Made by a program: the position numbers and the translations under genes
Part shown: positions 675 through 41,777 of the stretch, in pieces
Layout: each line of letters opens with the position of its first letter
Position numbering within the stretch: position 1 is the stretch's first letter
Source: an uncultured bacterium
GTDB taxonomy: Bacteria > Acidobacteriota > Aminicenantia > Aminicenantales > UBA4085
Direction of reading: 5' to 3'
Length of the DNA: 64,000 nucleotides
NCBI GenBank assembly: GCA_937868205.1
Contig: CALMMC010000049.1
Span: 423-64,422, forward strand
The notes under the pieces: generated by a model
What the model was told of the DNA's origin: nothing
The model's database searches: none
The model's input: only the letters and a program-made list of their open reading frames with translations

Positions 675-1349
675 ATGCCTCCCTTTAAGCGCATTGTCGC
701 CGTCAACCGCCCGCACCATATCACCAACCGGGGAAACCGCCGGCAAACCATTTTTTTCAGCGATGAGGACAGGAAGGTCTACCTCGGCCTTCTTGGCTGG
801 CATGCGGACAAGTACGGACTCAAATTTTGGGCCTATTGCCTGATGCACAACCATATTCATCTTATCGCGGTGCCGGAAAATCCCGAGAGCATGTCTCTGA
901 CCATTCGGGAGACCCATCGGAAATATTCCTCCTACATCAATATTCTCATGAATTGGAAAGGCACGCTTTGGCAGAGGCGTTTTTATTCGTTTCCTCTAGA
1001 AGACGCCCATTTGTACCGGGCGCTTCGTTATGTCGAGAATAATCCGGTTCGGGCCGGGATCGTTAAAAAAGCGGAGGAATACCGCTGGTCAAGCGCGCCG
1101 GCCCATGTGTTCGGCCGTCGAGACGGCTTGCTCTCCCCCAACGGGCTCGGCATCAAAAGGAATAACTGGAGGGCTTACCTCAGAGAACAGGAGGAAGAAG
1201 CCGAAATCAAGGATATCCGCGCCCGGTCGTTAACCGGCCGGCCCCTGGGCGGAGATGAATTCATCGCCGAGCTCGAGCAATCCCTGGATCTTGAGCTCCG
1301 GCATAAAAAGCCGGGCCGGAAAAAATCTGACGCGAACGGAAAGCCTTAA
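675..1349 (+). mobile_element. REP-associated tyrosine transposase (RAYT, IS200/Y1-HUH-like TnpA_REP)
   Basis: The 224-aa ORF carries the HUH motif (YCLMHNHIHLIAVPE) and a downstream catalytic-Tyr region (RYVENNPVRAG). It resembles the Y1 transposase/RAYT family and is flanked on both sides by inverted REP repeats. Confidence 0.85.
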
Positions 1350-9136: not shown

Positions 9137-10411
9137 ATGAAAGAGGAGAACGCCATGGCCCTGGACCTCGAACGCGTCCGTCATCAATTCCCCGCCCTCG
9201 CCGGCAACGCCGTTTTTCTGGACAACCCCGGGGGCACCCAGGTCGTCAAGAACTGTCTCGACCGGATGCTCGACTATCTCATCGAGGCCAACGCCAACCA
9301 CGACGGCGCCTTCAAAACGAGCCGCGAGTCGGACGCCCTGGCCGCCCGCGCCCGCCAGGCCGCGGCCGATTTTCTCAACGCCCGCCCCGAAGAAGTCGTC
9401 TTTGGGGCGAACATGACGACCCTGACCTTTCATCTTTCGCGCTCCCTCGCTCCGCGCCTCGGCCCCGGCGATTCCCTCGTCGTCACCCGTCTTGACCACG
9501 ACGCCAACATTTCGCCCTGGCTTCTCCTGGCCCGCGACCGGGGGGCCGAAATCCTCTGGGTCGATTTCCATCCCGAAGACGGCACCCTCGACTTGGCGGA
9601 TCTCGACCGGGCCTTGGAGAAAAAACCCAAGCTCATCGCCGTCAGCTACGCCAGCAACGCCCTCGGGACGATCAATCCCGTGGCCGATATCGCCGCCCGG
9701 GCCCGGGCGGCCGGGGCGCTTGTCTTCGTCGACGCCGTCCATTACGCCCCCCACGGGCCGATCGACGCGGCCGCCCTCGGCTGCGACTTCCTGGCCTGCT
9801 CGGCGTACAAGTTCTTCGGTCCCCATCTCGGCCTTCTCTATGGGCGGCGGGAACTCCTGGAGGAGCTTCCGGCCTATAAAGTCCGGCCGGCCGACGACAG
9901 GGTCCCTTTCCGATTCGAGACGGGGACGCCCAACTTCGAGGCGCTCGCCGGCCTGCTCGGGACGATCGAGTATCTCGAGGAGCTCGGAACACGCTTCGGC
10001 GAGGATCCCGAGGCCGAGCCGGCCGACGATCCGTCCGGACGGAAGCGGAAGCTCCGCCGGGCGGCGGCGGCCGTCCGGGCCCATGAGCGGACGCTGGCCG
10101 CGGCCATGTTCGAAACGCTCCAAGCGATCCCCTCGATGAAAATCTTCGGGCTCACGGACCCGGCCCGCTTCGACGAACGCGTCGCGACCTTCTCATTCCG
10201 CCTGGGGGACGTCCCCCCGCGGCGGATCGCCGAGGAGCTGGACCGCGACGGGATCTATGCCTGGGACGGGCACTACTATGCCCTCGAGACGGTTCGGCGC
10301 CTCGGCCTCGAGGACAAGGGCGGCATGCTCCGGGTCGGGGCCGTCCATTACAACACTCTCGAAGACATCGCCCGGCTCGGCCGGTCGCTGGCCCGGATCG
10401 CCAAGGCCTGA
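9137..10411 (+). CDS. Class V aminotransferase, cysteine desulfurase-like (SufS/CsdA-related)
   Basis: Fold-type I PLP enzyme with the SAYKFFGPHLG lysine motif; overall similarity to cysteine desulfurase family proteins. Confidence 0.8.
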   Translation: MKEENAMALDLERVRHQFPALAGNAVFLDNPGGTQVVKNCLDRMLDYLIEANANHDGAFKTSRESDALAARARQAAADFLNARPEEVVFGANMTTLTFHLSRSLAPRLGPGDSLVVTRLDHDANISPWLLLARDRGAEILWVDFHPEDGTLDLADLDRALEKKPKLIAVSYASNALGTINPVADIAARARAAGALVFVDAVHYAPHGPIDAAALGCDFLACSAYKFFGPHLGLLYGRRELLEELPAYKVRPADDRVPFRFETGTPNFEALAGLLGTIEYLEELGTRFGEDPEAEPADDPSGRKRKLRRAAAAVRAHERTLAAAMFETLQAIPSMKIFGLTDPARFDERVATFSFRLGDVPPRRIAEELDRDGIYAWDGHYYALETVRRLGLEDKGGMLRVGAVHYNTLEDIARLGRSLARIAKA

Positions 10412-10548
10412 ATTTTTTTCGGGACGTCGGCGGAAGAATCATCAATCCGCCGCGGATCTGGTCAGAGAGCGATTCGCCCCGGCGGCCGAAACGTCCGGCG
10501 CCGGATGCTTCCGTGCAGATGTGGTGAACCCGGAACAGGTCTCCCGGA

Positions 10549-10690
10549 TCAGGTCTTTTCGGCCAGCCGGCGAAAGCTTCGATTGAGGGCGATGAACCAC
10601 AGTGACCAGCCGAGGTGCATGATTCTCTGCTTGGCGCCGATCCAGGGGCCGAGAGTATCCGGCATATACGCCGTTCGTTGTGGTAAAATA
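10549..10690 (-). pseudogene. C-terminal remnant of a native high-GC DUF998 gene
   Basis: Reverse-strand translation FILPQRTAYMPDTLGPWIGAKQRIMHLGWSLWFIALNRSFRRLAEKT* aligns with the C-terminus of the adjacent intact DUF998 ORF (…ILPGYFGLKQRFLYAGWTVWSVYLSFRFLKLSAK*). It is cut off by an in-frame stop exactly at the AT-rich junction. Confidence 0.55.
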
Positions 10691-10705
10691 AATTAAAAGA
10701 AGACT

Positions 10706-11281
10706 ATGAGAATAAAATATTTATTAATTTTTGGATTGTTAAGTCCGTTGGTTTTTTGGATTACGACAATTCTTTGCGGATTACGACTTGAAGGATATAA
10801 TCATTTTACCTGGTTGGTAAGTGAATTAGGAGCATTAGGGACCAGGACACAGGTTATTTTTACATTCGGATTAGTTTTAAGTTCCATCCTTAATTTTGTT
10901 TTCGTTATTGGTTCATTTAAATTTTGTAAAATGAGGCAATTGAATCTGATTCCTGTGATATTCCTATTGTTTTATTCTTTCCTTGCGGGACCAGCTCTAT
11001 TTCCAATGCCTTTGAGACTGCATGGTATTGTTGGAATCCCTTTTCCTCTGATAATGTTTGCTCCGATCGTGAGCCTCATTTTCTGGAGAAAGAAGGAGTA
11101 TCAGGTAAAAATAAGAGTGATAGCCATCATTAGTTTCCTGATTATGCTATTGGGATTTTTAATTTATTTTCCGAATATCCTGCCTGGATATTTCGGATTA
11201 AAACAAAGATTTTTATATGCAGGCTGGACTGTTTGGTCTGTTTATTTGAGCTTCAGGTTTTTGAAATTAAGTGCGAAATAA
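10706..11281 (+). CDS. DUF998-family membrane protein encoded in a roughly 600-bp low-G+C cassette
   Basis: A 191-aa multi-TM ORF. By eye the segment is about one-third G+C against flanks in the high 60s, with sharp compositional boundaries near 10690 and 11290. Confidence 0.75.
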   Translation: MRIKYLLIFGLLSPLVFWITTILCGLRLEGYNHFTWLVSELGALGTRTQVIFTFGLVLSSILNFVFVIGSFKFCKMRQLNLIPVIFLLFYSFLAGPALFPMPLRLHGIVGIPFPLIMFAPIVSLIFWRKKEYQVKIRVIAIISFLIMLLGFLIYFPNILPGYFGLKQRFLYAGWTVWSVYLSFRFLKLSAK

Positions 11282-11384
11282 CTCAAGTGAACTGGAGGAC
11301 ATCCCCGATCTGGCATTTACCCTGCGGGCTGACCGGGGTGTCGGAATGACCCCTCCCGATTAATATTGCGTTGGTGTCAGGTCT

Positions 11385-11506
11385 TACATTAAACATTTGG
11401 AACCCAGGTGGCTGTAGTCGCCCAGCCGGGCGGCGCAGAGAAATATCGTTCCCCAAAACAACAGGACCGCCAGGATGCCTGCATCGAGCCATCGGCTTTT
11501 ATTCAT
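11385..11506 (-). pseudogene. N-terminal remnant of the same native DUF998 gene
   Basis: Reverse-strand translation MNKSRWLDAGILAVLLFWGTIFLCAARLGDYSHLGSKCLM*. The core LLFWGTIFLCAARLGDYSHL parallels LVFWITTILCGLRLEGYNHF of the intact gene; it is truncated after about 40 codons. Confidence 0.55.
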
Positions 11507-11556
11507 GGGGGCGATATTCCCTTGAACGTTCATTCGGAAACAAGACGAGCGAGATC

Positions 11557-12123
11557 CTATTTCCTTTGGCTCCACAGCCGGTCGCGGGTCTTGACCCGGA
11601 AATATCCCCGGCCGACGGCCCGGATGTCCTCCACCGAATAGAACGCCTCGGGCCGGCATTGACGGACCGTCTCGATGACCCGGGGCAGATTGACCCGGTC
11701 GAGGACCAAGAAGATGATCTTGACCTTCCCGCTTTTTCCCTCTCCGTCGATGCAGGTCACGCCGTGCTTTTCCTCCCGGAGGCGTTCGACGAGCGCGTCC
11801 GCATTGTTCGGAGTGATGACCCGGAGAAGGACGTTCCCCACGGCCAGTTTTTCCTCGATCCGCATGCCGACGTAGGTCCCCATGGCGAAGCCGGCCCCGT
11901 AGGCCAGGTAATAAAAAGGATTGGTCAGGTTCTGCATGATCTGGGTGATGGCCACCAGCCAGATAATAACCTCGAAAAAACCCAGAAGCGGGGCTAGAAG
12001 CCGCCGGCCCTTCGAGATGAAGATGATCCGCATCGTCTGGAGGCTGACGTCGAAGATGCGGGCCGTGAAAATCAGCAGGGGAAGAATCACCCATTTGAAG
12101 AGGTCGAAATTCAGGAATTCCAT
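11557..12123 (-). CDS. UPF0316/DUF2179-family membrane protein (YitT-like)
   Basis: MEFLNFDLFKWVILPLLIFTARIFDVSLQTMRIIFISKG… matches the DUF2179 pattern. The start is chosen at MEFLNF; the longer ORF-track version carries an R-rich upstream extension. Confidence 0.65.
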   Translation of the reverse strand: MEFLNFDLFKWVILPLLIFTARIFDVSLQTMRIIFISKGRRLLAPLLGFFEVIIWLVAITQIMQNLTNPFYYLAYGAGFAMGTYVGMRIEEKLAVGNVLLRVITPNNADALVERLREEKHGVTCIDGEGKSGKVKIIFLVLDRVNLPRVIETVRQCRPEAFYSVEDIRAVGRGYFRVKTRDRLWSQRK

Positions 12124-12137
12124 CGCCGCCTTCCTCC

Positions 12138-12515
12138 TCACTCCGCGGGCCGGGTTCCGGCGGCCGCGGACCATTTTGCCCGGAGGGCCGGGTCGTCCAG
12201 CCTCTTGACCAGCACGCCCCCGACGACCGGCCGCGCTTGGAAGACCGTCTTTTTTCCTGTGTGCGCTTCCGGAGAGATGACGTCGACGGCCAAGAGGCAA
12301 CCGTCGCTGAATTTCTCCTTGGGGGCCGGAAGCGGCGTTCCGGCCAGGTCGGCCGCCGACCGGATGCTGAAGCAGGGATCATGGGCGATCCGCGGCTCGG
12401 CCGGCGGCCGGAAGGGCGTCGTTTCCGCGGCCGAGGCGGCGGGAAAAAGAGCGGGCGTAATCAGGAAGATGCGGCAAAAGCGGGCGATCATGACGTCCTC
12501 CGGGGAATATTTCAA
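12138..12515 (-). CDS. Hypothetical secreted protein (signal peptide), immediately upstream of the UPF0316 gene
   Basis: The ORF has an N-terminal hydrophobic signal-like segment MIARFCRIFLITPALFPAASAAE. There is no recognisable domain; weakly supported. Confidence 0.35.
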   Translation of the reverse strand: MKYSPEDVMIARFCRIFLITPALFPAASAAETTPFRPPAEPRIAHDPCFSIRSAADLAGTPLPAPKEKFSDGCLLAVDVISPEAHTGKKTVFQARPVVGGVLVKRLDDPALRAKWSAAAGTRPAE

Positions 12516-39641: not shown

Positions 39642-40952
39642 ATGATGGAAACGAAGCGTCCGCGGAAGAACGCGCTTTTGTACGGGGCGGCTTTCCTGGC
39701 AACGGCCGCGGTCATCGCCGGCGTCCTCGCCCTTCTCTTCAACGTCCGAACCCGGCGGGAGGAGGCGTACCGCTATCCCTTGAAGGTCGTCGAAATCAAG
39801 GACGGCGAGATCGATCCGGCCGTCTGGGGGAAAAACTTTCCCCTCGAGTACGATACGTTCGTCCGGACGCGGGAGAATTACGGCCGGACGTTCCACGGCG
39901 GATCGGAGCGCTTCAGCCGGATCGACGAGATCCCCGCGGCCAAGCGGCTCTGGGCGGGCTATGCCTTCAGCGTCGAGTACAATGAGGAGCGGGGTCACTT
40001 CTTCGCCCTGACCGACCAGAAGATGACCCGCCGGGTCCGGGAATTCGATCAGCCCGGAGCCTGCGCCAACTGCCACTCGGGCAAGGCTCCGGCCCTGATC
40101 CGGGAGATGGGCTGGGAGGCATTCAATAAAACGCCGTACAAAGAGCTCTCCCCCAAACTCCGCCACGGCTCGGTCTGCGCCGACTGCCACGACCCCAAGA
40201 CAATGGAGCTGGTCATCACCCGCCCGGCTTTCAAGAAAGCCATGGCCGCGGCCGGCGTCGACTTGGCCAAGGCGACCCGCCAGGACATGCGGACCTACGT
40301 CTGCGCCCAGTGCCACGTCGAATACTACTTTTACGGGGAGAACAAGGAACTGACTTTCCCCTGGGCCAAGGGCCGGACGATCGAGGCGATCGAAGCCTGC
40401 TACGATGAAAACGGCCACGTCGACTGGGTCAACGCGGAAACCGGGGCGGCCATGCTCAAGGTCCAGCATCCCGAGTTCGAAACGTGGGGCACCGGGCTCC
40501 ACGCCAAGTCCGGGGTGGCCTGCGCCGACTGCCACATGCCGTATGTCCGGGCCGGAAGCGTGAAGGTTTCCGACCACTGGATCCGCAGCCCCCTGACGAA
40601 CATCGCCGCCGCCTGCCAAGCCTGCCATCCCCGGCCCGAGGAGGAATTAAAATCCCGGGTCAAGGACATCCAGGACAAGACGGCGGGCCTTCTGCGGAAG
40701 ACGGAAACGGCCTTGCTTGCGGCCATGGACGCGATCATCAAGGCCAAGGCGGCCGGCGTTCCGGACGAGCGCTTGTCCGCTTCCCGGGCTCTGATCCGGC
40801 GCGGCCAGCTGCGCTGGGATTTCGTCTTTTCCGAGAACGGGACAGGCTTTCACAGCCCCCAAGAGGCCGCCCGCGTCCTGGCCGAGGCGATCGATTTCGC
40901 CCGGCAGGCGGAATTGGCCGCCGCCCTGCTCGCTCCGGCCGGAATCCGCTGA
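39642..40952 (+). CDS. nrfA: Ammonia-forming pentaheme cytochrome c nitrite reductase NrfA (CxxCH active-site variant)
   Basis: Five CxxCH motifs (CANCH, CADCH, CAQCH, CADCH, CQACH). The first heme is CxxCH rather than the CxxCK of canonical NrfA. Overall NrfA-like length and motif order. Confidence 0.85.
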   Translation: MMETKRPRKNALLYGAAFLATAAVIAGVLALLFNVRTRREEAYRYPLKVVEIKDGEIDPAVWGKNFPLEYDTFVRTRENYGRTFHGGSERFSRIDEIPAAKRLWAGYAFSVEYNEERGHFFALTDQKMTRRVREFDQPGACANCHSGKAPALIREMGWEAFNKTPYKELSPKLRHGSVCADCHDPKTMELVITRPAFKKAMAAAGVDLAKATRQDMRTYVCAQCHVEYYFYGENKELTFPWAKGRTIEAIEACYDENGHVDWVNAETGAAMLKVQHPEFETWGTGLHAKSGVACADCHMPYVRAGSVKVSDHWIRSPLTNIAAACQACHPRPEEELKSRVKDIQDKTAGLLRKTETALLAAMDAIIKAKAAGVPDERLSASRALIRRGQLRWDFVFSENGTGFHSPQEAARVLAEAIDFARQAELAAALLAPAGIR

Positions 40953-41143
40953 CGATCCGCGCCGCGGCTCGGGGCAAGACCCGCCCGCCTCGTTCTTTCC
41001 GGCCAGGGGGCGAAGGATTTTCAGTCCTAACGACGGGCGTCGTTTTCGCGATCATTAAGCTGAATCCGCACGATTTTCCGATTCCTATAAAGAAAAGGAT
41101 TTAAAGGAAATACAGGGAACTAAAAAAAAATATTAAATTTCTC

Positions 41144-41171
41144 TTGACACGCGTAACCTTTGCGTTATTAT
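41144..41171 (+). promoter_or_regulatory. Near-consensus sigma70 promoter (TTGACA, 16-nt spacer, TATTAT) followed by a TATGAC-N9-GTCATA palindrome (41181-41201)
   Basis: ttgaca at 41144-41149 and tattat at 41166-41171, inside an AT-rich roughly 200-bp block. The palindrome immediately downstream of the -10 is operator-like. Confidence 0.6.
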
Positions 41172-41212
41172 ATATAACGTTTATGACACTATTTGAGTCA
41201 TAGGGGTTAACA

Positions 41213-41281
41213 ATGAGCAATTTCAAAATGTTGGTTTTAGTGGTCGTCGTGATCTTTCTTTCGATGCTTGTGATCGGTTGA
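41213..41281 (+). CDS. 22-codon hydrophobic small ORF (MSNFKMLVLVVVVIFLSMLVIG)
   Basis: AGGGG Shine-Dalgarno 8 nt upstream of the ATG. It lies downstream of the strong promoter, and the peptide is a single TM-length hydrophobic helix. Confidence 0.35.
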   Translation: MSNFKMLVLVVVVIFLSMLVIG

Positions 41282-41303
41282 GTCCCTCCGAGGAAACAGG
41301 AAC

Positions 41304-41777
41304 ATGAAAAGGAGACTTCCCATGACCCCGGCAAGCAAAATCGACGAATTCGAGCGGACGTACCGCGGCGTCTATTCCCGGTTCGTCATCGTTTTTCTCG
41401 TTTTCTCCGCGGCTTGGCTGGTCCGTTTCATCGTCCGGACCATCGGCACGCTCCCCGAATGGCTGGACATCGGTTTCGCGGTGATCCTCATCCTGACCCT
41501 CCCCGCCCAGTTTTACAGCGTCGTCCGCTTGAGCGCGCTTCGCAAGCGCGGCCAAGCCGACGCGGAGCTGGGCGTCCTGTTCACGGATGAGAGGATTCAA
41601 GCCCACGGCAAGGCCGCCTGGATGTACGGATTCATCGCCATGGCCTCCGTCCTCGCCGTCCTCGGCGCCATTTCCGTCTTCGCCGACCTCAAGGACACGA
41701 ACGCCGTCATCTTCACGGCCCTCTGGGCCGGCTTCGGAGCATACCACTTGTCCTTCGTCCTCATGGAAAGGCGCTGA
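41304..41777 (+). CDS. DUF2178-like small membrane protein
   Basis: A 157-aa protein with 3-4 TM segments, immediately upstream of and co-oriented with an XRE regulator, the typical DUF2178/YozG pairing. Confidence 0.5.
   Translation: MKRRLPMTPASKIDEFERTYRGVYSRFVIVFLVFSAAWLVRFIVRTIGTLPEWLDIGFAVILILTLPAQFYSVVRLSALRKRGQADAELGVLFTDERIQAHGKAAWMYGFIAMASVLAVLGAISVFADLKDTNAVIFTALWAGFGAYHLSFVLMERR

Follow-up and report, generated by a model that had tools for sequence, protein, structure and literature searches.

Replacement of a gene, in its own chromosomal place, by a foreign homologue is usually inferred from gene trees, and the physical course of such a replacement is rarely visible. The process, xenologous gene displacement in situ, was reportedly described by Omelchenko et al. 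in 2003. In the described cases, which are identified by phylogeny, the newcomer has taken over the operon slot and the orientation of the displaced gene, of which nothing remains. Truncated remains of a previous allele of the same family are found beside the newcomer among the orphan modules of polymorphic toxin loci (Rhs and contact-dependent inhibition [CDI] systems) and in the pilS and hsdS shufflons. These systems depend on shared conserved DNA, have a constant direction of reading or else a recombinase acting on defined inverted repeats, and are seen repeatedly within a locus. Here, we analyze a 64,000-nucleotide stretch of contig CALMMC010000049.1 (assembly GCA_937868205.1), referred to below as the window. 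It comes from an uncultured Aminicenantes bacterium recovered from sewage and digester samples. An intact, low-GC (guanine-plus-cytosine) gene for a DUF998 membrane protein lies there in reverse orientation between the two ends of an older gene of the same family.

DrmA, a six-helix membrane protein studied in Enterococcus, affects the levels of cationic glycolipids and resistance to daptomycin (PMC13370385, bioRxiv preprint), and its loss is selected under daptomycin in that genus (PMC13370385). Through such findings, the DUF998/DrmA family has lately been tied to the homeostasis of membrane lipids and to tolerance of an antibiotic that acts on membranes. We consider the locus to be probably the fixed footprint of xenologous gene displacement inside the displaced gene, produced by an illegitimate insertion-deletion in antisense orientation and kept by selection. 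The first-pass annotation of this DNA had described a native DUF998 gene split by a low-GC cassette carrying an inverted homologue, and had offered three origins for it: illegitimate integration of a cassette that targets its own homologue, a decayed invertible or switchable allele system, and a metagenomic misassembly.

Intact and disrupted DUF998 genes at one site

The open reading frame (ORF) at positions 10706-11281 of the plus strand encodes 191 amino acids and matches the Pfam family DUF998 (PF06197) over profile positions 2-182 of 184, with an E value of 1.4e-15 and a score of 57.8 bits against a cutoff of 30. The prediction of an intact 191-residue DUF998 protein on this strand is thereby confirmed, the score being above the gathering cutoff. 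An AlphaFold2 model of the protein is confident (predicted local distance difference test [pLDDT], 89.2; predicted template modeling score [pTM], 0.85) and all-helical. The long helices are predicted at residues 3-27, 49-76, 82-98, 103-134 (broken), 137-154, and 163-190, which corresponds to a membrane fold with about six helices. All 10 contigs that were translated have an intact ORF, and its DNA is gap-free in 23 of 23 contigs of the species. Five sites in the ORF vary within the species, four of them synonymous and one nonsynonymous (Q133L). The ratio of nonsynonymous to synonymous substitution rates (dN/dS) is 0.13-0.19 between the window gene and its donor-type relatives, compared with 0.10-0.15 among those relatives themselves, and the codons unique to the window copy comprise 17 synonymous and 7 nonsynonymous changes. 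This pattern of substitution indicates that the new gene has evolved under purifying selection. Judged by its intact ORF, its dN/dS values, and the confident structure model, the incoming gene looks functional.

The gene is compositionally foreign. The GC content is 0.32-0.38 over positions 10700-11299, compared with 0.56-0.72 on either side; by segment, the values are 0.340 for the intact ORF, 0.584 and 0.578 for the C-terminal and N-terminal remnants, 0.677 for the neighboring aminotransferase gene, and 0.584 for the neighboring DUF2179 gene. The first-pass annotation was correct in placing a segment of about 600 bp at roughly one-third GC, and it overestimated the surroundings, put in the high 60s; the immediate flanks measure in the high 50s to low 60s. 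The nearest nonself proteins are 75 to 85% identical, and all of those with a name belong to Bacteroidota (Lutibacter sp. B1, Bacteroidales, and Salinivirgaceae). Five donor-type loci, on contigs of 31-35% GC, were used for comparison at the DNA level, where the identity to the window gene reaches 86.7% (locus L112) and 80.9% (L114). Composition and closest relatives (Bacteroidota; 31-35% GC contigs) thus both point to a foreign origin. GC at third codon positions (GC3) is 0.335 in the foreign gene, 0.23-0.27 in the donors, and 0.82-0.85 in host genes, and the substitutions specific to the window comprise 21 AT-to-GC and 5 GC-to-AT changes. This bias and the shift in GC3 are as expected for early amelioration in a GC-rich host, a process that appears to have begun.

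The donor-type loci share a conserved upstream region with TATATTTG about 50 nt before the ATG, a box resembling the Bacteroidota -7 promoter box, TAnnTTTG. A conserved 3' flank is common to four of the five (L112, L119, L120, and L121). The window retains the last 33 nt of the donor upstream region, from GTTCGTTGTGGT at 10673. In the alignment with the donor-type loci, the TATATTTG box is absent from the window and nothing of the 3' flank is kept past the stop codon. The donor-derived DNA therefore extends from 10673 to about 11283, some 611 bp, and is essentially a promoterless ORF. This revises the earlier bounds of the low-GC segment, 10690-11290: the DNA is indeed foreign, but positions 11284-11401 form a separate spacer of 52% GC. 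An mRNA-derived (retro-processed) origin, considered in view of the near-ORF size, was dropped on inferential grounds: the insert starts inside the leader without a recognizable boundary, and its end is marked by the stop codon instead of a terminator. The DUF998 gene was not found on plasmids (tblastn) or in viral contigs, and nothing that could have served as a plasmid or phage vector for the insert was found in plasmid, phage, and viral collections.

Expression of the foreign gene could have more than one source. The leader (10673-10705) has no variable site in the population and contains, at 10681-10689 on the plus strand and 17 nt before the ATG, TGGTAAAAT, a possible extended -10 promoter element. 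The consensus promoter scan passed over it because it has no -35 hexamer. The donor counterparts, TGCAAAAAT in L112 and TGGTCAAAAAAT in L114, fit an extended -10 element less well, and the promoter might have been gained after the transfer. No plus-strand terminator-like site was found between 10411 and 10706, so that read-through from the aminotransferase gene could also express the foreign gene.

Two short minus-strand ORFs flank the intact gene. The N-terminal one (11506..11384) reads MNKSRWLDAGILAVLLFWGTIFLCAARLGDYSHLGSKCLM; it leaves the homology and runs on to a stop codon at 11384-11386. BLASTP aligns its residues 10-34 with residues 10-34 of the intact protein (12/25 identical; E value, 2e-6), and tblastn with composition statistics off aligns the C-terminal remnant with the intact gene at 37% identity over 38 amino acids (E value, 3.6e-6). 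The Pfam DUF998 model matched neither remnant, and composition-corrected BLASTP also missed the C-terminal one. We therefore turned to a subfamily profile built from the 120 closest family members, with 2000 shuffles as controls. The N-terminal remnant scores 24.1 bits at profile positions 1-35 (best shuffle, 9.6) and the C-terminal remnant 29.2 bits at positions 154-191 (best shuffle, 5.6). Most residues that are invariant in the subfamily are kept, namely, G10, F17, W18, T20, C24, Y31, and H33 in the first and P156, G164, K166, Q167, R168, G173, W174, and W177 in the second; the signature stretches are LLFWGTIFLCAARLGDYSHL and GAKQRIMHLGWSLWFIALNRSF. A six-frame profile scan of positions 10380-11600 and of the whole window returned exactly three DUF998 pieces, the intact gene and the two remnants.

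From the profile and alignment matches, and judged against the modeled structure of the intact protein, the remnants are the first and last helix of another gene in this subfamily. The first-pass reading of these fragments as DUF998 termini is thus upheld by BLASTP, the subfamily profile, and tblastn; agreement with the family hidden Markov model, which it had asked for, is found for the intact gene with Pfam and for the remnants with the subfamily profile but not with the Pfam model. The lost core corresponds to profile positions 36-153. Replacement of the middle of the gene in place is supported, and its size rises from the estimated 100 to about 118 codons. Strands, composition, and relatives agree that what lies in this core is a foreign, full-length, inverted homologue. 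We rejected an apparent continuation of the C-terminal alignment through the AT-rich leader (10673-10713, minus strand), which passes a stop codon and brings the profile score down to 25.7 bits, compared with 29.2 without it.

The remnants themselves are host-like in GC3 (0.71-0.78, compared with 0.82-0.85 for host genes), and the older gene was therefore either long resident or derived from a high-GC source. Variable sites per bp amount to 0.029-0.037 in the remnants and the old 3' flank, 0.002 in the DUF2179 gene, and 0.009 in the aminotransferase gene, all based on small numbers. The remnants are most likely pseudogene stumps. No copy of the 137-bp 3' flank (10412-10548) was found elsewhere. 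Between 11556 and 10459, the minus strand showed no terminator-like site, so that transcription of the DUF2179 operon would be expected to cross the first stump and then run antisense into the foreign gene. Several public records call the remnants as small genes of 40 (or 49) and 38 amino acids (11384-11506 and 10549-10665, both on the minus strand), with a protein cluster of their own (P0121).

The arrangement is genuine, and in the sampled population it is fixed. The exact 191-residue protein is listed in 225 blocks of a public collection, and all 23 contigs that we read, from separate samples, show the same neighbors. Twenty of them are gap-free and 99.3 to 100% identical to the window over 2987 bp, and three more are 99.3 to 99.9% identical over the 1145-bp block between the flanking stop codons. 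The records come from ENA, NCBI, JGI, and Logan, bear SPAdes-style (NODE_) and MEGAHIT-style (k141_) names, and include contigs of up to 0.49 Mb; one source record is labeled Candidatus Aminicenantes bacterium ADurb.Bin147. Look-up through the DUF2179 neighbor again returned only this arrangement. Two variants in the cassette (10724T>C and 11103A>T) co-occur with host-flank variants at 9586, 9644, and 9928 in the same contigs, and this linkage shows that the cassette evolves as part of this genome. A sharp GC step within a contig of a metagenome-assembled genome is what an assembly chimera would look like. However, an identical join in 23 contigs of separate samples, under two styles of assembler name and in contigs of up to 0.49 Mb, together with the linked single-nucleotide polymorphisms and a cassette that has drifted toward host GC, refutes it, and we regard a chimera as almost inconceivable. 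In three records (L097, L098, and L100; GCA_035419285.1, GCA_028749155.1, and GCA_035372645.1), the low-GC DUF998 ORF has no gene call, and L100 also lacks the call of the 40-residue remnant. The DNA of all three is 99.4 to 100% identical to the window; the foreign gene is thus missing from some gene catalogues of the species.

Origin of the arrangement and competing explanations

Synteny was established from DUF2179 homologues, 66 to 81% identical, in six related Aminicenantales. In all six, DUF2179 is followed by a convergent gene within 25-37 bp, and in three (L101, L103, and L104) the two stop codons are only about 24-35 bp apart. The convergent gene in L103 and L104 is the same aminotransferase, and in L104 the LMWPc and lipocalin genes come next, just as they do in the window. 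Alignments with the relatives end exactly at the two flanking stop codons, and no DUF998 gene occupies the site in any of the six. Given the near-abutting genes and this end of homology, the whole 1145-bp block is lineage specific, the high-GC remnants included. The disrupted gene, which lies directly downstream of DUF2179 and on its strand, had been called native and resident; its composition is indeed host-like, but its absence from the six relatives argues that it is not ancestral at the site.

We searched for an uninterrupted copy of this older gene. A word-indexed search with the joined remnants returned only the remnant ORF itself (P0121), and the three loci that this query retrieved from metagenomes all belong to the same species. 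In a phmmer search of 1.84 billion representatives, the C-terminal remnant matched seven partial proteins, the best 61 to 62% identical and without taxonomy. Aminotransferase homologues, at 80 loci among the matches listed, are of Anaerolineales type with at most 63% identity, and none is accompanied by DUF998. Thus, the uninterrupted allele that the first-pass annotation proposed to seek in related genomes was not found in proteins, metagenomes, or the six relatives. That an earlier homologue stood at this chromosomal place is evident from the flanking remnants, though no relative carries the older gene.

We propose the following history. The lineage would have come to carry a host-like, high-GC DUF998 gene downstream of DUF2179, between genes that are convergent and near-abutting in relatives. 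Then a genome of low GC and Bacteroidota type contributed a fragment of some 0.61 kb, which entered the older gene by what was probably illegitimate, homology-independent recombination (the outcome is plain; the mechanism is our reading), possibly during uptake of foreign DNA and with insertion coupled to deletion. The 116-bp filler may have arrived with the fragment or afterwards. About 118 central codons of the older gene would have been lost in the same event or soon after, leaving its first and last helices as dead remnants. Decay by deletion is seen next door in this lineage as well, in the relic of a GtaA-like gene (12138-12491). The orientation would have been arbitrary, the surviving one being parallel to the upstream aminotransferase gene. 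The foreign gene is probably transcribed by read-through or from the TGGTAAAAT extended -10-like element; it would now supply the function of DUF998, a DrmA-like six-helix membrane protein, while drifting slowly toward host GC. We would put its landing in its own homologue down to chance and selection and would not invoke a targeting device. An insertion may survive the destruction of a useful gene if it brings a working substitute, and a one-step knockout and replacement could even be favored if the old allele had become a liability.

The left junction lies at 10672/10673 and the right one somewhere within 11384-11401. DNA identity between each remnant and the matching part of the incoming gene is 48/105 (46%) and 51/117 (44%), with a longest exact run of 6 nt. 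Identity this low, with exact runs this short, offers homologous recombination or gene conversion no substrate; the longest k-mer shared by cassette and flanks is 9 nt. The short repeats or recombinase sites that the first-pass annotation proposed to look for at the junctions did not emerge beyond chance. Inverted repeats bounding the insert are limited to short or AT-rich matches at chance level, the sole perfect 14-nt pair having one arm inside the ORF, and neither terminal repeats nor a target-site duplication beyond chance were seen at 10672/10673, at about 11400, or at the block ends. A 9-nt direct repeat, TCAGGTCTT (at 10549 and 11377), was rejected as chance, as about three such pairs are expected in 1.3 kb. 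The called genes up to 10 kb away on each side have no integrase, invertase, or site-specific recombinase among their recorded Pfam families; the sole transposase-like gene in this range is a Y1_Tnp gene about 9 kb away. Of the first of the three suggested origins, then, the illegitimate integration stands as our inferred mechanism, and the targeting of the homologue does not, no device for it having been found.

The spacer between the foreign gene and the N-terminal remnant fits none of the sources at hand. It has no similarity to the conserved 3' flank of the donors, no DUF998 signal in any frame of the profile scan, no Rfam match, and only ORFs without a Pfam match. Copies were found neither elsewhere in the window nor in the compared loci, and the spacer was not found in plasmid and phage collections (blastn) or in viral contigs (two exact-pattern scans). 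Its folding as DNA or RNA is not better than that of shuffled sequences (z scores of +0.77, +0.30, -0.21, and -0.01; as single-stranded DNA, -11.5 and -12.5 kcal/mol, corresponding to the first two of these scores). As it matches neither donor flanks nor host DNA nor an RNA family, a third source of DNA at the site is possible.

Several points weigh against the history that we favor. It leaves the source of the spacer unexplained, and microhomology at the junctions is not readable without the exact donor and the deleted host sequence. As no intact older gene was found, prior residence of that gene has to be read from the remnants. The branch to which the dN/dS values of the window gene refer is partly that of an unsampled donor lineage. 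Above all, there is the question of why the insert landed in its own homologue. By our estimate for a genome of a few megabases, the chance that a random insertion falls into one gene of about 0.6 kb is about 1e-4. Insertions at neutral sites would survive too, so that the selection argument lowers the surprise without removing it: selection explains the persistence of the arrangement and not fully its occurrence. One response is that the co-location was not chance at all, and that there exists either an orientation-independent steering of genes into resident homologues or a recurrent, selected one-step destroy-and-install route for envelope proteins such as DUF998/DrmA. We hold this to be a long shot; if true, the locus would be the first intermediate of this kind to be caught with both stumps of the victim in place.

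The two events could also have occurred in the opposite order, with the older gene decaying by internal deletion and the foreign fragment landing later at or near the scar. The neighboring 117-residue ORF (12138-12491), a relic with the terminal pieces of a 697-residue GtaA-like protein that is intact in L103, provides a local precedent, and the third-party composition of the 116-bp spacer suggests more than one event at the site. Yet deletion first makes the coincidence worse, as a dead gene offers no selective reason for a homologue to land there, and nothing in the sequence tells the order of events; on balance, we think this order unlikely. Another possibility is that the 1145-bp composite was built in a different genome (another Aminicenantes lineage or a high-GC intermediate) and then brought in as one piece through homologous recombination in the flanking genes, which are conserved. 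The entire block, with its high-GC parts, is missing from the six relatives and has its edges exactly at the flanking stop codons, as such an import would predict. It is nevertheless a rather improbable account: neither the composite nor the older gene was found in another carrier, GC3 of the remnants is host-like, and the insertion of a homologue into a homologue is merely moved elsewhere and remains to be explained.

Directed integration into the homologue, by an integron-type cassette, a transposon or miniature inverted-repeat transposable element, a homing-type element, or homology-guided recombination, would account for a target of the same subfamily and for the cassette-like layout of one promoterless ORF with a short leader and about 116 bp of noncoding DNA. 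We searched for its traces without success. Spacer folding gave no attC-like hairpin after the ORF (no dedicated attC model was used) and stands at the level of shuffles, no attC-type core sites are readable at the spacer ends, and no integron integrase or cassette array occurs among the Pfam families on record within 10 kb. Add to this the terminal repeats that do not exceed chance, the missing integrase and invertase, the 44-46% identity to the target with exact runs of at most 6 nt, and the failure to find the gene on plasmids, phages, or viral contigs, and directed integration becomes very unlikely. An invertible allele switch, decayed or active, with the N-terminal coding regions as its inverted repeats, has a certain geometric appeal: the stretches coding for the N termini, on the left in the intact gene and on the right in the remnant, point toward each other, and inversion would fuse the start of the remnant and the operon promoter to the body of the foreign gene. 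But the arms are 46% identical with no exact run above 6 nt, and the two partners differ by about 24 GC points and so cannot be one repeat whose copies have diverged. The 23 contigs are all collinear, and none has the inverted orientation. With no bounding inverted repeats beyond chance and no recombinase within 10 kb, the switch proposed by the first-pass annotation finds no support, and we consider it highly improbable.

Locus features and other observations in the window

The features of the locus are collected in Table 1.

Table 1 Features of the DUF998 locus and its two neighboring genes, in window coordinates
Feature	Position	Strand	Basis
Lineage-specific block, 1145 bp, from aminotransferase stop to DUF2179 stop	10412..11556		Alignments of relatives
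3' flank of the older high-GC DUF998 gene, 137 bp, GC 0.62	10412..10548	-	Absent from relatives; 4 variable sites/137 bp
C-terminal remnant, 40 codons AYMPDTLGPWIGAKQRIMHLGWSLWFIALNRSFRRLAEKT plus stop, last transmembrane helix	10549..10672	-	Subfamily profile, tblastn, GC3 0.775
Donor-derived leader, 33 bp, contains TGGTAAAAT	10673..10705	+	Alignment with donor-type upstream regions; L114 matches from 10673
Intact 191-residue DUF998 (DrmA-family) gene, Bacteroidota type, GC 0.34	10706..11281	+	Pfam, DNA identity, relatives
Spacer, about 116-120 bp, GC 0.52, from stop of foreign gene to N-terminal remnant	11282..11401		Matches nothing searched
N-terminal remnant, codons 1-35 MNKSRWLDAGILAVLLFWGTIFLCAARLGDYSHLG, first transmembrane helix	11402..11506	-	BLASTP, profile, GC3 0.714; 4 variable sites/109 bp
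Gap, 50 bp, from DUF2179 stop to start codon of older gene	11507..11556	-	Read from sequence; absent from relatives
Class-V aminotransferase gene	9137..10411	+	Pfam families; same direction as incoming DUF998 gene
DUF2179/DUF5698 (YebE-like) gene, synteny anchor	11557..12123	-	Neighbor records, homologue look-ups

Just upstream of DUF2179, the 117-residue ORF on the minus strand (12138-12491; called as 122 residues in some strains) is a relic of the GtaA-like protein (DUF4964/DUF5127/GtaA_6_Hairpin) that holds the same position in L103. Relic residues 8-48, 46-75, and 77-111 match residues 11-51, 358-387, and 661-695 of the L103 protein, collinear and in frame, with E values of 1e-11 to 3e-14. 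Two internal deletions, of about 306 and 273 codons, have preserved both the frame and the close fit to the start codon of DUF2179. A relic with two such large in-frame deletions indicates that this stretch of the genome has been remodeled repeatedly.

Two further features lie at a distance. The Y1_Tnp gene (about 675-1349, plus strand; L001 1-644), in a stretch of lower GC (0.49-0.54), encodes 224 amino acids of an IS200/IS605-type or REP-associated tyrosine transposase, and no link between it and the DUF998 block, about 9 kb off, was seen. An AT-rich intergenic stretch of about 250-300 bp (41025-41325; GC, 0.31-0.41) sits between a 436-residue ORF with several CxxCH heme-binding motifs (39642-40952, plus strand) and a 157-residue hydrophobic ORF (41304-41777, plus strand). 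No convincing ORF was found inside it, and we take it for a probable regulatory region, not for another foreign gene.

Comparison with described systems

The intact gene passes the PF06197 threshold, and its all-helical model is consistent with the six-helix description of DrmA. DrmA, however, was characterized in Enterococcus, and a like role of the Bacteroidota and Aminicenantes members would be putative. The selection of DrmA loss under daptomycin makes episodic selection on alleles of this family plausible, which we offer as a lead and not as evidence for this organism.

The layout of the insert, a promoterless single ORF with a short leader and about 100 bp of noncoding DNA after it, recalls an integron gene cassette; it differs in having no attC-like hairpin, no integrase nearby, and no cassette array. 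Short-patch double illegitimate recombination, or SPDIR, and illegitimate integration in general offer a closer likeness, namely, insertion coupled to deletion, possible in either orientation, with neither long homology nor a mobile-element signature. SPDIR patches are, however, very short, unlike the insert here, and homology-facilitated events require a homologous anchor on one side, of which there is none at this locus. On none of these mechanisms would one expect cargo and target to be homologues. With the Rhs/CDI, pilS, and hsdS systems, the locus has in common the truncated remains of a previous allele of the same family beside the newcomer, and it has none of their shared DNA, direction or repeat structure, recombinase, or recurrence.

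The closest counterpart is xenologous displacement in situ, in which, as here, a horizontally acquired homologue from a distant phylum takes the place, and presumably the function, of an earlier family member. The differences are that the invader lies antisense inside the displaced ORF, that both termini of the victim survive, and that the victim was not ancestral at the locus. Nor do the two genes share slot and orientation, the newcomer being on the plus strand and the displaced gene, with its operon partner DUF2179, on the minus strand. As a single historical event, the locus does not establish a mechanism. It documents recent gene flow from Bacteroidota to Aminicenantes, fixed in a sewage and digester bacterium, and its surviving stumps show that displacement is possible by direct, homology-independent insertion into the victim, even in reverse, without recombination in conserved flanks. 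We conclude that this is not a new system and that it is an unusual, well-preserved example of a known evolutionary process.

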